A stretch of DNA of 20,000 bases from Chiloscyllium plagiosum (lineage: Eukaryota). The notes under the pieces are model-generated. The model was not told where the DNA came from. It saw only the letters and a program-made list of their open reading frames with translations, and made no database searches. The stretch covers positions 83,823,209-83,843,208 of the forward strand of contig NC_057718.1 of the NCBI RefSeq assembly GCF_004010195.1, in the 5' to 3' direction. The position numbers were made by a program, and so were the translations under genes. Shown here piece after piece: positions 1 to 20,000 of this stretch. Each line of letters starts with the position of its first letter. Position 1 is the stretch's first letter.

Positions 1-265
1 ATGTTTGAGCAGTGTCCAAGGTTAGCTCATCCTGATTTCCTGCATCCGTTGCTACCGATATGGTCTCCTCTACATTGGAGAGACCAAGCGCAGACTCTGG
101 AACCAATTCAGGGAACACTTACAGTCCATATGCTGTAAATCAACCCCACCTTCCAGTTATCATCCATTTCAACTCTGGCAATGACATGTCTATCCTGGGT
201 TGCCTCCACTATCAATACAAGGCAACTTGTAAACTGGAGAACGAACACCTCATCTTCGGTCTCAG
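1..265 (+). mobile_element. Penelope-like element, decayed GIY-YIG endonuclease C-terminal fragment
   Basis: Frameshifted translation gives CYRYGLLYIGETKRRL...FREHL and HLPVIIHFNS...MSILGCLH...KLENEHLIFGL, colinear with the GIY-YIG ORF at 14606-15364. Confidence 0.85.
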
Positions 266-1034: not shown

Positions 1035-1218
1035 AATACCCTACACCCACCATCACTATTCCTGCCAACTAGAGCACAAATGTTGTACCTCCACACTTCA
1101 GTTCTGAAGAAGTCATTTAAATGTTAGCTTGCTATCTCTCCATGATGCTGCCTGACCCTTTGTGATCTCCAGCATTTGTTTTCAGAACAGATTCCAGTGT
1201 CTTCAGTAATTTGTTCCT
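1035..1218 (+). mobile_element. Decayed Penelope pLTR with hammerhead remnant
   Basis: CTGAAGA at 1104-1110, then GATGCTGCCTGACC...CTCCAGCATTT...GATTCCAG...GTAATTTG, colinear with the pLTR at 14349-14484; stem II and GAAAC are eroded. Confidence 0.7.
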
Positions 1219-1226
1219 ATCACTTA

Positions 1227-1428: not shown

Positions 1429-2178
1429 CTGAATTAGATGTTTCGTGTTCACTGCTAATGTGTCAATAATATTTTGCATAAATATAAAAGGTACCAGTTT
1501 TCTCCAAAGGAAAAATACCTCAAATTAAGCAACAACAGAGCATTGGCATTCAGCATTTTTTTTTCTCCTGTAGCCTGTGAAGAAGAAAGCACTAAATGAC
1601 TGGGTTTGGTGAAGCTAACAATTAATGGTACCATTTAGTTGTATTCCAGATTTTGAGTACTAGCCTTTTTATGAATGATGAATTATAAGTTCATCTGCAC
1701 AATTATTAAACAAGATGGCGGGCAGGTTGTTGGAGGGAATCCTGAGGGACAAGATTCACATGTATTTGGAAAGGCAAGGACTGATTACGGATGGTCAGCA
1801 TGGCTTCGCATGTGGGAAATCATGTCTCATAAACTTGATTGAGTTTTCTGAAGAGGTAACGAAGAGGATTGATGAGGGCAGAGCGGTGGACGTGATCTAA
1901 TGGACTTCAGTAAGGCATTTGACAAGGTTCCTCATGGTAGACTGGTTATCAAGGTTAGATCTCATGGAATACAGGGAAAACTAGCTATTTGGATACAGAA
2001 CTGTCTCAAAGGTAGAAGACAGAGGGTGGTGGTGGAGGGTGCTTTTCAGATTGGAGGCCTGTGACCAGTTGTGATGGATCCACTGCTTTTTGTCATTTAT
2101 GTAAATGATTTGGATGTGAACATAGGAAATATAGTTAGTAAGTTTGTCGATGACACCAAAAATTGGAGGTGTAATCGA

Positions 2179-2395
2179 CCAGAGAAAGTGAGGGCTGCAG
2201 ATGCTGGAGATCAGAGCTGAAAATGTGTTGCTGGAAAAGCGCAGCAGGTCAGGCAGCATCCAAGGAACAGGAGAATCGACGTTTCGGGCATAAGCCCGAA
2301 GAAGCCTGAAGAAGGGCTTATGCCCGAAACGTCGATTCTCCTGTTCCTTGGATGCTGCCTGACCTGCTGCGCTTTTCCAACAACACATTTTCAGC
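2179..2395. mobile_element. ORF-less fold-back Penelope pLTR insertion with 12-bp TSD
   Basis: AGGTGTAATCGA at 2167-2178 and 2396-2407; inverted arms 2216-2297 and 2314-2395 (82 bp, 1 mismatch), 16-nt loop, 37-nt unpaired tail 2179-2215. Confidence 0.9.
2300..2339 (+). ncRNA. Minimal hammerhead ribozyme motif (PLE type)
   Basis: CTGAAGA 2306-2312, A, stem II GGGC-TTAT-GCCC 2314-2325, GAAAC 2326-2330, GTC 2331-2333; helix I is imperfect (AGAAGC / GATTCT). Activity not shown. Confidence 0.7.
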
Positions 2396-2461
2396 AGGTG
2401 TAATCGAGAGCCAAGAATGTTATCTCTGATCAAGATCCCGTTGTAATCGATGGGTGAATGG

Positions 2462-2988
2462 TTCTGGATTAGTGGTGCTAGAAGAGCACAGCAGTTCAGG
2501 AAGCATCCAAGGAGCTTCAAAATCGACGTTTCGGGCAAAAGCCCTTCAGGAATAAAGGCAGTGAGCCTGAAGCGTGGAGAGATAAGCTAGAGGAGGGTGG
2601 GGTTGGGGAGAAACTAGCATAGAGTACAGTGGGTGAGTGGGGGAGGGGATGAAGGTGATAGGTCAGGTCAGGGAGGAGAGGGTGGAGTGGATAGGTGGAA
2701 AATAGTCTCCTTTTCCACCTATCCACTCCACCCTCTCCTCCCTGACCTATCACCTTCATCCCCTCCCCCACTCACCCATTGGACTCTATGCTACTTTCTT
2801 CCCACCCCCACCCTCCTCTAGTTTATCTCTCCACGCTTCAGGCTCACTGCCTTTATTCCTGATGAAGGGCTTTTGCCCGAAACGTCGATTTCGAAGCTCC
2901 TTGGATGCTGCCTGAACTGCTGTGCTCTTCCAGCACCACTAATCCAGAATCTGGTTTCCAGCATCTACAGTCATTGTTTTTACCTCAA
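2462..2988. mobile_element. ORF-less fold-back Penelope pLTR insertion with 10-bp TSD
   Basis: GGGTGAATGG at 2452-2461 and 2989-2998; inverted arms about 2462-2702 and 2711-2949, 8-nt loop, 39-nt unpaired tail 2950-2988. Confidence 0.9.
2855..2890 (+). ncRNA. Minimal hammerhead ribozyme motif (PLE type)
   Basis: CTGATGA 2859-2865, A, GGGC-TTTT-GCCC 2867-2878, GAAAC 2879-2883, GTC 2884-2886; stem III is reduced to the palindrome ACGT. Confidence 0.75.
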
Positions 2989-3646
2989 GGGTGAATGGGC
3001 TGAGGCATGGTAGATGGAGTTTAATTTAGATTAATGCGAGGTGCTGCATTTTGGAATAACAAATCAGAGCAGGACTTAATGGTAAGGTCCAATGGAGTAT
3101 TGCTGAACAAAGAGACCTTGGAGTGCAGGTTCATATTTCCTTGAAAGTGGAGTCGCAGGTAGATCGGATAGTAAAAAAGGCATTTGGTATGCTTTCCTTT
3201 ATTGATCAGCGCGTTGAATACAGGAGTTGGGAGCTGTACAGGACATTGGTTTGGTCACCTTTGGAATATTGCGTGCAATTCTGGTTTCCTCCCTATTTGA
3301 AAAGATGTTGTGATACTTAAAAGGGTTCTGTAAAGATTTAGAATATGGCCAGGGTTGGAGGTTTTGAGTTATAGGGAGGGGCTGAGTAGGTTGGGGGTGT
3401 TTTCCTCGGAGTGGAGGCTGAAGGGTGACCTTAAAGAGGTTTACAAAATTTATGAGGGGCATGGATAGAATAAATAGACAAAGACTTTTCCCTGGGATCT
3501 GGGAGTCCAGAACTAGAGGGCGTAGGTTTAAGGTGAGACAGGAAAGATATAAAAAGGACCTAAAGGGTGACTTTTTCACACTGTGGGTGGTGCATGAATG
3601 GAATGAGCTGCCAGAGGATGTCGTGGAGGCTGGTACACTTACAACA

Positions 3647-3964
3647 CGGCACGGTGGCTCAGTAGTTCACACTGCTGCCTCACAGCACCAGGGTCCCGGG
3701 TTCAATTCCAGCATCGGGCGACTGTCTGTGTGGAGTTTGCACATTTTCTCCGTGTCTGTGTGGGTTTCCTCTGGGTGCTCTGGTTTCCTCCCTCAGTCCA
3801 AAGATGTGCAGATCAGGTGAATTGGCCATTCTAAATTGCCTGTAAAATTATGTGCATTAGTTAGAGGAATAGGTCTGGGTGGGTTACTCTTCAGAGGGTT
3901 AGTGTGGACTGGCTGGGGCGAAGGGTCTGTTTCCATACTGTAGGGAACCTAATCTCATCTAATC
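3647..3964 (+). mobile_element. tRNA-derived V-SINE (HE1-like) with 7-bp TSD
   Basis: A box TGGCTCAGTAG 3655-3665, B box GGTTCAATTCC 3699-3709, V-domain-like TGTGTGGAGTTTGCAC...GGTTTCCTCC...CAGTCCAAAGATGTGC, CR1-like tail GAAGGGTCTGTTTCCATACTGTA; TSD TACAACA at 3640-3646 and 3965-3971. Confidence 0.9.
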
Positions 3965-4659
3965 TACAACATTTAAAAGGCATCTGGATGGGTATATGAA
4001 CAGGAAGTGTTTCGAGGGAGATGGGCCAAATGTTTGCAAGTGGGACTATATTAGGTTTGGGTATTGGTCGGCATGGATGAGTTGGACTGAAGGGTCTGTT
4101 TTCATGCTGTACGTCTCTATGACTCTTAGAACTTTAATTAATCTAGTGGGTACACTAACTGTCATTTCGGTGCCATTAATGCTGAGCAATATACCAATAC
4201 GTGCAAAGCTGTTCAGGTGAATTAACTCTTAAAAGGTGGGAAAATTGTTGCTCCTGTGATGTACCTTGGAAAATGTTAAGGAAATAATTCTTTTTTAAGT
4301 CAAAAACAATCACATAACACTGAGGTATCGTTCAACAAGTTTATTAAAACCTCATCTAAAAAAGAAAAACTCATGCTCCTGAAAATATTCCATTATGTCA
4401 GTAACACAACAAGAAAAGACAACTTCCATTTTGTCATGATCTAGACTTGCAGAACGAAAACAGCGAGTTCCTTCATGCAATGATAAAATTAATCATTGCT
4501 GTTCCTCAATTCACTGGAGGTCCAGTTTCAAATTTTACCTGTAGTTTACAAACTGATGCCACTTATGTTTAAATGGCTTTTGGGGTTAAGCATTCAGTCA
4601 GGACATACTGACAAGGCTTGTATTCTCTCAAATGTAAATTATTAAGAAGAGATCCAAGT

Positions 4660-13149: not shown

Positions 13150-14165
13150 CATTTTTATTTGGTCATAGGATGTGTGAAGGCCAGTACAAAACCAGCATTT
13201 AATCCCTTTCCAAAGGATGTCGTGGGTTACAGAGGGACATGGATAAGCTGCAGAGCTGAGCTGAGAGGTGACAAATGGAGATTAATGTGGAAGCGTGTGA
13301 GGTGATTCACTTTGGAAGGCCGAACAGGAATACAGAGTACTGGGCTAATGGTCTGATTCTTGGTTGTGTGGATGAGCAGAAAGATATCTGTGTCCATGTA
13401 CGTAAATCCCTGAAAATTGCCACCCAGGTTGAGAAGGTTGTTAAGAAGGCATGGGCGTTGTTAGCTTTTACTTGTAGAGGGATTGACTTTCAGAGCCACG
13501 AGGTCATTCTGCAGCTGTACAAAACTCTGGTGCGACCGCACTTGGAGTATTGCATACAATTCTGGACACTGTGTTATAGAAAGGATGTGGAAGGTTCGAA
13601 AAGGGTGCAGTGGAGATTTACCAGGATGTTATGGAGGGCAGCTCTTATGAGGAAAGACTGAGGGATTTAAGGCTGTTTTTGTTAGAGAGAAGGTTGAGGG
13701 GTGACTTAATTGAGACATGTACAATAATCAGAGGGTTGGATATGGTGTACAGCGAGAGCCTTTTTCCTCGAATGGTGATGGCTAGCGCAAGGGGACAAAG
13801 CTTTAAATTGAGGGATGATAGATATAGGACAAATGTCAGAGGTAGGTTCTTTATTCAGAGTATTAAGGGTGTGGAACGGCCTGCCTGCAAGAGGAGTAGA
13901 CTCTCCAACTTTAAGGGCATTTAAATGGTCATTGGATAAACATAGGATGAAAATGGAATAGGCTTCAGATTGGTTTCACAGGTCGACGCAACATCGAGGG
14001 TCCAAGGGCCTGTACTGCACGGTAATGTTCTATGTTCTATCCCTAACTATCCATGACAAGCCATCTTCTACTCCTCCTGAGAAGCTGGTACATTCAGAGT
14101 ATTCAGAGTGGGGAGTTGCAGGATATCCAGTTGCAGTAACAAATGGTGATATTGTTCCAAGTGAG
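13150..14165 (-). mobile_element. Old ZfL3-like LINE 3' end, split by the CR1 at 13215-14040
   Basis: TTTTATTTGGTCATAGGATGTG...CCAGCATTTAATCCC to the left and CCCTAACT...GGGAGTTGCAGGAT...TTCCAAGT to the right match the reverse complement of the tail at 10618-10693 and its upstream UTR. Confidence 0.55.
13215..14040 (+). mobile_element. 5'-truncated CR1 LINE
   Basis: CEVIHFGR, LQLYKTLVRPHLEYCIQFW, YEERLRDLRLFLLERRLRGDLIE; ends in (TGTTCTA)2. Confidence 0.92.
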
Positions 14166-14346
14166 AAAGACCCACAAGACCAGAAGAAATAGTAACAGCC
14201 GTAGCTATCCAACTCCTTGAGCCTCCTCTGCCTTTCATAGGATCATTGCTGATCTGACATTTATCACATCAATTTTTCTTGCCTTACCCTGGTGACTCTC
14301 TCTTCCCCTACTGATTAAGAACTTAACTCAACCTTAAATACACACT

Positions 14347-15380
14347 GGATAAAAGCAAATTACTGCGAATACTGGAATCTGAAACCAAAAGAGAAAATGC
14401 TGGAAAATCTCAGCAGGTCTGGCAGCATCTGTAAGGAGAGAAAAGAGCTGACGTTTCAAGTCAAACTGACCCTTTGTCAAAGCTAAAAAAAGGGAGAAAT
14501 AGAGAGGTATTTATACTAGGCTGAGAGAAGGTGAGTCATGGCTCCAGAAGTAAAGGTAGCAATAAAGAGGTGATAATGACAGTGCATAGAGAGATTATGG
14601 GGGGATTAGGAGCTATGAATGACCAAGGCTGAAGCCAGTGCTATGTGACAAAATATGTGGGGCTGTAACATGCCTAGTCTGAAGATGAGATGCTGTTCTT
14701 CCAGTTTGCGTTGAGCTTCACTGGAACATTGCAGCAGGCCAAGGACAGACATGTGGGCATGGGAGCAGGATTGTGTGTTGAAGTGGCAAGCCACAGGAAG
14801 GTCTGGGACCTGATTGCATACAGACCAAAGGTGCTCAGCAAAGCGATCACCCAGTCGGCATTTTGTTTCTCTGATATAGAGGAGACCACATCGGGAGCAG
14901 CGAATGCAATAGACCAAATTGAAAGAGGTACAAGTGAAACGCTGCTTAATCTGAAATGAGTGTTTGGGGCCTTGGATGGTGAGCGTGGAAGAGGTAAAGG
15001 GGCAGATGTTACACCTGCGATTGCATGGGAAAGTGCCGTGTGTGTTGGGAGAGTTGTTAGGTGTGATGGAGGAGTGGACGAGGTTGTCCCGGAGGGAATG
15101 ATCTCTGCGGAGTGCAGGCAGGGGGAGGGAAGGGAAGATGTGTTTCGTGGTGGCATCGTGTTGGAATTGGCGAAACTGGCGGAGGATTATTCTTTGCATG
15201 TGAAGGTTGGTGGGGTGAAAGGTGAGAACAAGAGGGACCCTATCCTTATTCTGGGAGGGGAGGGAGGGGGTGAGGGTCGTGGCGAGGGAGATGGACCGCA
15301 CGCTGTTGAGAGCCTTGTCAACAACTGAAGGTGGGAAGCCACGGTTGGAGAAGAAGGAGCACATATTAAGAGCACCACTT
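14347..15380 (-). mobile_element. 5'-truncated Penelope-like element: RT thumb, linker, GIY-YIG endonuclease and 3' pLTR
   Basis: Open frame 14606-15364: FSNRGFP, RVPLVLTFHP, PCNRRCNIC, FTCTSFNLVYCIRCSRCGLLYIRETKCRLGDRFAEH, VACHFN, RKLEEQHLIFRLGMLQP; pLTR at about 14349-14600. Confidence 0.92.
14446..14484 (-). ncRNA. Variant or degenerate hammerhead-like motif in pLTR
   Basis: Minus strand AGCT-TTGACAA-AGGGTCA-GTT-TGACTT-GAAAC-GTC-AGCT: helices I and II are intact, but the core is UUGACAA instead of CUGANGA. Confidence 0.5.
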
Positions 15381-18208: not shown

Positions 18209-18309
18209 TAGAGTCATAGAGATGTACAGCATGGAAGCAGACCCTTCGGTCCAACTTGTCCATTCTGAGCAGATATCCTGAACTAATCTAGTTACTTTTG
18301 CCAGCGCTT
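18209..18309 (-). mobile_element. CR1 3' terminal fragment, same family as 1715-4126
   Basis: AGAGTCATAGAGATGTACAGCATGGAAGCAGACCCTTCGGTCCAAC is close to the reverse complement of 4081-4126. Confidence 0.85.
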
Positions 18310-19874: not shown

Positions 19875-20000
19875 TGGATCAGTGGTGCTGGAAGAGCACA
19901 GCAATTCAGGCAGCATCCGAAGACAGGCAAAATCGACGTTTCGGGCAAAAGCCCTTCATCAGGAATAAAGGCAGAGAGCCTGAAGCGTGGAGAGATAAGC
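19875..20000 (-). mobile_element. Penelope pLTR (same subfamily as 2462-2988) with intact hammerhead core, running off the window
   Basis: Near-identical to 2465-2587; minus-strand CTGATGA-A-GGGC-TTTT-GCCC-GAAAC-GTC at 19962-19935. Confidence 0.88.

Follow-up and report, generated by a model that had tools for sequence, protein, structure and literature searches.

We analysed a 20,000-nt stretch of DNA (the window) and identified, within an old LINE, two separate head-to-head insertions, A (2179-2395) and B (2462-2988), each of which carries one intact hammerhead core on the plus strand; the minus strand of 2100-3100 contains 0 intact cores. Both plus-strand cores lie inside near-perfect inverted repeats, which a first-pass annotation of this DNA did not mention. 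Inverted-repeat searches and alignment delimit insertion B as a head-to-head pair of what are likely 5′-truncated PLE ends, with its tailed arm on the plus strand. The tail-less arm (2462-2702, 241 nt, minus strand) lies antisense on the plus strand, an 8-nt loop (2703-2710) forms the centre of the hairpin, and the tailed arm (2711-2949, plus strand) consists of a pyrimidine-rich upstream part, core B and a shared 3′ block. A 39-nt tail (2950-2988, plus strand) is present at the right end of B only, and a 10-nt target-site duplication (TSD) borders the insertion (2452-2461 and 2989-2998, given on the plus strand). The two arms share 230 identities over 242 aligned positions, with 12 mismatches plus gaps, and in the core of the tail-less arm (minus strand, 2549-2525) a deletion of 3 nt has taken away part of CUGAUGA.

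Insertion A is a head-to-head pair from a sister subfamily and runs opposite to B, its tailed arm being on the minus strand. Its 37-nt tail (2179-2215, minus strand) is found at the left end only, followed by a tailed arm (2216-2297, minus strand) that is antisense to core A and ends at the first G of stem II, without CUGANGA. The tail-less arm (2305-2395, plus strand) holds the intact core A (2306-2333). The arms of A are 99 % complementary over 82 nt and a 12-nt TSD encloses them (2167-2178 and 2396-2407, given on the plus strand). In a chance control of up to 2000 random flank pairs, words of at least 12 nt were shared in 0 pairs and words of at least 10 nt in 8. As the tails lie on opposite ends and each is one-sided, A and B represent independent events of opposite orientation. 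A piece of the host LINE (2408-2451, plus strand) separates them, and the LINE empty site aligns with another LINE copy at 13213-13620.

The two hairpins are only 44 nt apart, measured from TSD to TSD, in a single LINE copy, and a 9-nt word of the A TSD reappears at about 2442-2450. Positions 2426-2448 are likely a 23-nt inversion, since the alignment to the LINE copy at 13213-13620 gains 46 query bases once this segment is inverted; the segment stops 3 nt short of the left TSD of B and may date from the insertion of B. The 5′ strand of helix I in core A (2300-2304) likely stems from the junction and not from the family. In the middle of this hairpin (2298-2314) we observed a 7-nt duplicate, GAAGAAG, of the sense-strand core, which accidentally yields the 5/6 paired helix I of core A; this duplicate suggests template switching at the junction.

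A pattern scan of the 20,000-nt window returned three cores with 0 mismatches, namely A (2306-2333, plus strand), B (2859-2886, plus strand) and C (19962-19935, minus strand), together with a fourth match with 3 mismatches at 2552-2525 on the minus strand, while 200 shuffled sequences gave a mean of 0.00 matches. All three cores are exactly where the first-pass annotation had placed them, and C17, the predicted cut site, sits at its proposed positions 2333, 2886 and 19935. Pattern scan and folding both outline core B as a minimal type I hammerhead (2855-2890, plus strand) with C3 at 2859, G8 at 2864, an extra A at 2866, G12 at 2879, ACGU at 2882-2885 and C17 at 2886. Its stem II comprises 4 bp (2867-2870 with 2875-2878), of which G2867-C2878 corresponds to G10.1-C11.1. 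Core A has A at N7 and a UUAU loop. The type I order CUGANGA, GAAA, UH is present in the three intact cores, and the extra nucleotide between 9 and 10.1 that belongs to the definition of minimal hammerheads (min-HHR) is A2866 in core B. Helix I is short and imperfect, as had been noted before, with 3/4 pairs in cores B and C and 5/6 in core A, where 4-5 bp are expected of a min-HHR. The palindromic ACGU (15.2-16.2) occurs without a helix III in core B (2882-2885) and core A (2329-2332); since A15.1-C-G-U16.1 lacks a loop, a monomer is unable to close stem III, again in agreement with the earlier reading.

The first-pass annotation had further described the pairing of stem II as kept. Stem II is indeed paired in all three cores, but this reflects mere identity: GGGC/GCCC is the same in A, B and C, there are zero compensatory changes and stem II therefore shows no covariation. 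In an Rfam search, which the annotation had proposed as a check, none of the 60 window matches at E ≤ 1 was to a hammerhead, and 2845-2900 on its own gave 0 matches at E ≤ 10, as may be expected of a motif that lacks helix III. Pattern scans of metagenome contigs, viral contigs and prokaryote genomes gave 0 matches to the core.

Assignment to the PLE-type minimal hammerheads with a palindromic stem III, which was the class first suggested for 2855-2890, is supported by the features of the motif. Min-HHR were defined by Cervera and De la Pena (2014, PMC4209133), in whose account they number thousands per genome, mostly as single motifs, with some in opposite-strand pairs 100-700 bp apart; monomers are described there as inactive and dimers as having low activity. 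The dimer work of Lunse et al. is treated in a review (PMC6765202). The cores reported here resemble the min-HHR of metazoan PLE pseudo-LTRs (PMC4209133) in their type I core, the extra nucleotide between 9 and 10.1, G10.1-C11.1, the palindromic 15.2-16.2 without helix III, the putatively short helix I and their occurrence in mostly truncated dispersed copies. They differ from the Schistosoma families of the same paper, in which helix II has 7-8 bp, in a helix II of 4 bp that is known here from sequence. The main text of PMC4209133, as far as it was covered, names no shark min-HHR family, and its supplements may list related ones; a literature search, with subscription journals, Repbase and Dfam outside its scope, found no paper on shark PLE hammerheads. 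The motif class has already been described, and the locus would add to it a likely shark or ray PLE example of a minimal hammerhead within hairpin insertions.

Copy C (19875-20000, minus strand), found by alignment and pattern scan, belongs to the same subfamily as B. It has no tail and extends beyond the window edge, and is therefore likely the tail-less arm of another pair. A decayed PLE on the minus strand (14340-15379) is made up of an ORF piece, a worn hammerhead and a tail. Its ORF (14606-15379, minus strand) covers the C-terminal part, with a C-x3-C-x2-C linker and a GIY-YIG region, and shows 54-62 % identity to 4 shark and ray RT/GIY-YIG proteins; a fifth match is weak (E 8e-5). According to Pfam, all 4 strong relatives contain GIY-YIG (4/4, one of them above the curated cut-off) and 2/4 contain RVT_1, and in a protein atlas the peptide from the window falls with GIY-YIG clusters at 0.96. 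To judge from the strong relatives, the host is likely a shark or ray. Pfam searches with pieces of the window ORF itself gave 0 families for 10/10 pieces and, in a looser rerun, 0 for 2/2, so that the PLE call for this ORF, itself without a Pfam match, draws on its relatives and the atlas. The linker fits the CX2-5CxxC motif between RT and EN that is a trait of Neptune and Nematis (PMC8557442), and belongs to the ORF of the remnant, not to A or B.

The 3′ end of this remnant (14398-14480, minus strand) joins a decayed hammerhead (14480-14450), in which C3 and G8 are changed and stem II has 6 bp of a different sequence, to the shared 3′ block. The block common to A and the remnant (14398-14429) is 91 % identical over 32 nt (E 1.5e-5). 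The upstream part of B showed a weak likeness to the C-terminus of a shark protein (E 0.12; tblastn E 0.003-0.018) in low-complexity sequence, and no contiguous ORF was found for subfamily A or B. Homology, through the 3′ block shared with an RT/GIY-YIG element, and architecture suggest that A and B are likely PLE-derived.

The C-terminus of a shark RT/GIY-YIG protein model, P0003 (residues 509-518), reads LMKGLRPKRQ, which is what translation of such a core would give, and its gene model runs through the PLE 3′ end into the hammerhead; a search with this C-terminal read-through returned only P0003 itself. "Uncharacterized proteins" of this kind are likely misannotated PLE pieces. Two further models that match the PLE peptide, P0002 and P0005, are nevertheless annotated under the names of host genes. 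A second decayed PLE is scattered over 32-263 (plus strand), about 270-1080 and 1100-1221 (plus strand), with a GIY-YIG piece at E about 1e-14 and a 3′ end that combines the shared block with a worn core near 1100-1160; the sequence separating its pieces may belong to this element in inverted orientation. SINE-like and LINE 3′-end repeats lie at 3660-3960, 4045-4126 and 18210-18292, and presumably these resemble the shark HE1/HER1 elements.

The architecture of A and B agrees with the insertion unit described for EN+ PLEs, in which an inverted 5′-truncated copy sits head to head at the 5′ end of the element, a tail of 30-40 bp is often found at one end, TSDs measure 8-10 bp and inverted junctions are palindromic (Craig 2021, PMC8557442; Arkhipova 2013, PMC3846280). 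An inverted truncated copy in head-to-head arrangement is present in 2/2 complete insertions, and the likeness to the unit in those papers (PMC8557442, PMC3846280) extends to the one-sided tails of 37 and 39 nt, the short TSDs and the palindromic junctions. In contrast to that unit, the arms at this locus are too short for an ORF, the whole insert being a hairpin of 217 or 527 nt, and one TSD has 12 nt.

Short, non-coding inserts with inverted arms and flanking TSDs could also belong to a MITE-like or retrozyme-like family whose mobile unit is the palindrome itself, and in two DNA runs strand-switch joints at 2855/2896 were seen repeatedly (24 and 11 contigs). Their ends are asymmetric, however, with a tail on one side only, A and B are unlike in length, centre and orientation, and there are no head-to-tail tandem units, the defining trait of non-LTR retrozymes; we consider such a family very improbable. 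Non-LTR retrozymes have been found in the one chondrichthyan sampled (Li 2026, bioRxiv 10.64898/2026.07.22.740005), and A and B resemble them in being non-coding and PLE-derived with a type I hammerhead. Whereas those elements consist of at least 2 head-to-tail units, each with a complete hammerhead (Li 2026), the insertions here pair their arms head to head and each retains a single intact core. Membership of that class was considered and rejected on the grounds that the locus contains no consecutive head-to-tail units.

Long palindromes are also a known class of artefact, and no contig covers the whole 2700-3120 stretch. An origin of these palindromes in assembly or amplification nevertheless has a probability close to nil, as both insertions have a TSD and a one-sided tail and the arms of B diverge by the 12 mismatches plus gaps noted above.

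Two intact cores on the same strand, with C17 residues 553 nt apart, invite the reading put forward in the first-pass annotation that they pair as a double hammerhead within one read-through RNA and cleave. Both ACGU/ACGU and the crossed helix I strands would allow such pairing, and the structure can be imposed in folding. Yet each core has its own insertion, the two being opposite in orientation and from different subfamilies, and any RNA with both cores always includes 2462-2702, the 241-nt near-perfect antisense arm of B. It is because this arm lies between them that we do not regard cores A and B as a double hammerhead. Folding, which was computed from nearest-neighbour energies that omit tertiary contacts, kinetics and proteins, points the same way: the predicted probability of stem II of B was ≤ 1e-4 in 4/4 RNAs carrying both cores, in all four of which core B was predicted to pair with 2525-2549, and forcing the double hammerhead cost a predicted 55, 103 and 161 kcal/mol in the three RNAs tried (3/3). 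In snapshots of a growing RNA that starts at 2298, past A's own antisense arm, the antisense arm of B holds core A in the first 4 of 6; later, core A is freed only once core B displaces it, and both are free in 0/6. The 2300-2900 RNA is accordingly predicted not to cleave, and the cis double hammerhead, for which we find no support, ranks as extremely improbable.

RNAs starting at 2711 or later, that is inside the loop of hairpin B, leave core B free in prediction, with a probability of stem II of 0.75-0.89. For such free monomers a forced homodimer (-15.1 kcal/mol) compares with -24.2 kcal/mol for two monomers and -30.3 kcal/mol for the free cofold.

We surveyed copies of the family using 2700-3120 as query (421 nt, the right arm of B plus 132 nt of LINE flank) at 80 % likeness. 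Contigs matching this query, LINE flank included, numbered 78,231 and 61,800 in two DNA runs with two species labels and 5,232 in a third run, guessed to be RNA; a raw single-cell RNA run contributed 0 reads, which says nothing on transcription. Among the 40 variants listed out of 86, 27 lie inside the element and 5 within 2855-2890, and all of these 5 are CpG transitions; non-CpG variants inside the motif amount to 0/21 among those listed (p about 0.06 if uniform). G12, the general base in the hammerhead (PMC6155905), is changed from G to A in 11.5 % and 18.2 % of the depth in the DNA runs and 10.3 % in the run guessed to be RNA, these shares being depth-weighted contig counts and not per-copy counts; a CpG in the flank at 3038 gave 11.5 %, 25.2 % and 8.3 % in the same runs. 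Decay at the catalytic G12 is similar to that at a CpG in the flank, which gives the copies the appearance of relics. Comparison of the window copies gave a weak contrast, with 2/28 differences in the core against 11/53 in the flank for A versus B (p 0.10) and 0/28 against 8/53 for C versus B (p 0.03). The first-pass annotation had held that a core no better conserved than its flanks would speak against its reading. At CpG positions, G12 included, the core is kept no better, whereas subfamily-type differences show a weak tendency to avoid the motif. This pattern fits neutral decay of copies from a parent with a selected motif, the half of the statement that concerns selection in the parent being weak.

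Contigs enter mixed flanks before 2855 in 984 and 888 cases in the DNA runs and in 128 in the run guessed to be RNA, with an agreement of 0.32-0.34, and none of the six strongest loose-end places listed for each run is the cut site at 2887. Relative to DNA, depth in the run guessed to be RNA is 16-20 per 1000 over the core versus 37-58 per 1000 just 3′ of the cut site, an approximately 2-fold dip, but the run consists of contigs only, with neither ends nor strand, and such depths are a poor measure. Cleavage of some copies could produce this dip, which is a hint inseparable from artefact. Over 2715-2834 the relative depth in this run is some 40-fold lower than 3′ of the core, for which subfamily make-up or library bias is a possible cause.

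Our preferred interpretation, to which we assign a probability of about 0.85, is that a repeat of very high copy number, likely a PLE, carries in its 3′ end the minimal type I hammerhead seen at 2855-2890 and that this hammerhead is here likely an inert relic. Core B is likely inert at this locus on account of its own antisense arm, which is predicted to pair with the core in any longer RNA. Core B may instead be live in other contexts, where RNA beginning inside or after the hairpin loop would cut together with a partner copy or a PLE protein. The predicted formation of stem II in the free core, the great abundance of the family, the weak 2-fold dip in the run guessed to be RNA and the protein-assisted cleavage of a PLE from the anole (PMC11167929) are all compatible with this. 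Set against them are the forced homodimer, less stable than either two monomers or the cofold, the decay of G12 like that of a neutral CpG, and the report that at the cut site of the anole PLE no RNA reads begin or end (PMC11167929). We give a live core B only a small chance.

A related system is this element of the green anole, PAc, a Poseidon PLE (Frangieh 2024, PMC11167929). PAc is reported to use two RT start sites that bound the tail and to have both DNA strands extended; its cleavage was seen only with protein, its main template was uncleaved RNA and no RNA reads ended at the cut site (PMC11167929). The insertions described here are like PAc in having the hammerhead upstream of the tail, copies that apparently derive from uncleaved RNA and two end points one tail apart (PMC11167929). 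PAc was tested biochemically, in contrast to A and B, which are known from their sequence, and the window remnant has a C-x3-C-x2-C linker of the kind described for Neptune/Nematis.

Within the interpretation of core B as a relic, the literature suggests that an active parent element in tandem arrangement would use ACGU to pair two of its cores and would cleave weakly, probably with help from the element's protein. The insertions were likely copied from uncleaved RNA, given that each of the five arms extends upstream beyond C17. Reverse transcription would have started twice and run a short way each time, once from the end of the tail and once from the tail-less site, and the two resulting short cDNAs were likely joined head to head between staggered nicks; self-priming fold-back offers an alternative explanation of palindromic junctions (Arkhipova 2013, PMC3846280). 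In the resulting hairpin the core is predicted to be buried.

The role of PLE hammerheads is still regarded as open (PMC8557442; PMC11167929). We tentatively raise the idea, more probably wrong than right, that the shark-type PLE hammerhead serves mainly as a copying boundary and not as scissors: reverse transcription of uncleaved RNA would stop, or the template would begin, where the fold begins on its upstream side, and priming on the two cut DNA ends would make head-to-head inserts whose ribozyme is silenced as double-stranded RNA. Both arms of A stop within or right beside the motif, one at G10.1 and the other 1 nt short of C3, and the 984 and 888 DNA contigs described above diverge at 2855, 2887 being absent from the listed loose ends.

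The locus itself is of small import, being one among very many relic copies. It corrects a tempting error, in which two cores on the same strand are taken for a double hammerhead despite the antisense arm between them, and the abundance of the family provides a large natural set of insertion ends that bear on whether cleaved or uncleaved RNA is copied and on where copying stops. The purine/pyrimidine-skewed hairpin at 2600-2800 reached up to 105 bits against Rfam miRNA families, all below gathering. These matches likely reflect the long hairpin, which would give rise to false miRNA calls, and the hairpin is a possible source of double-stranded RNA.
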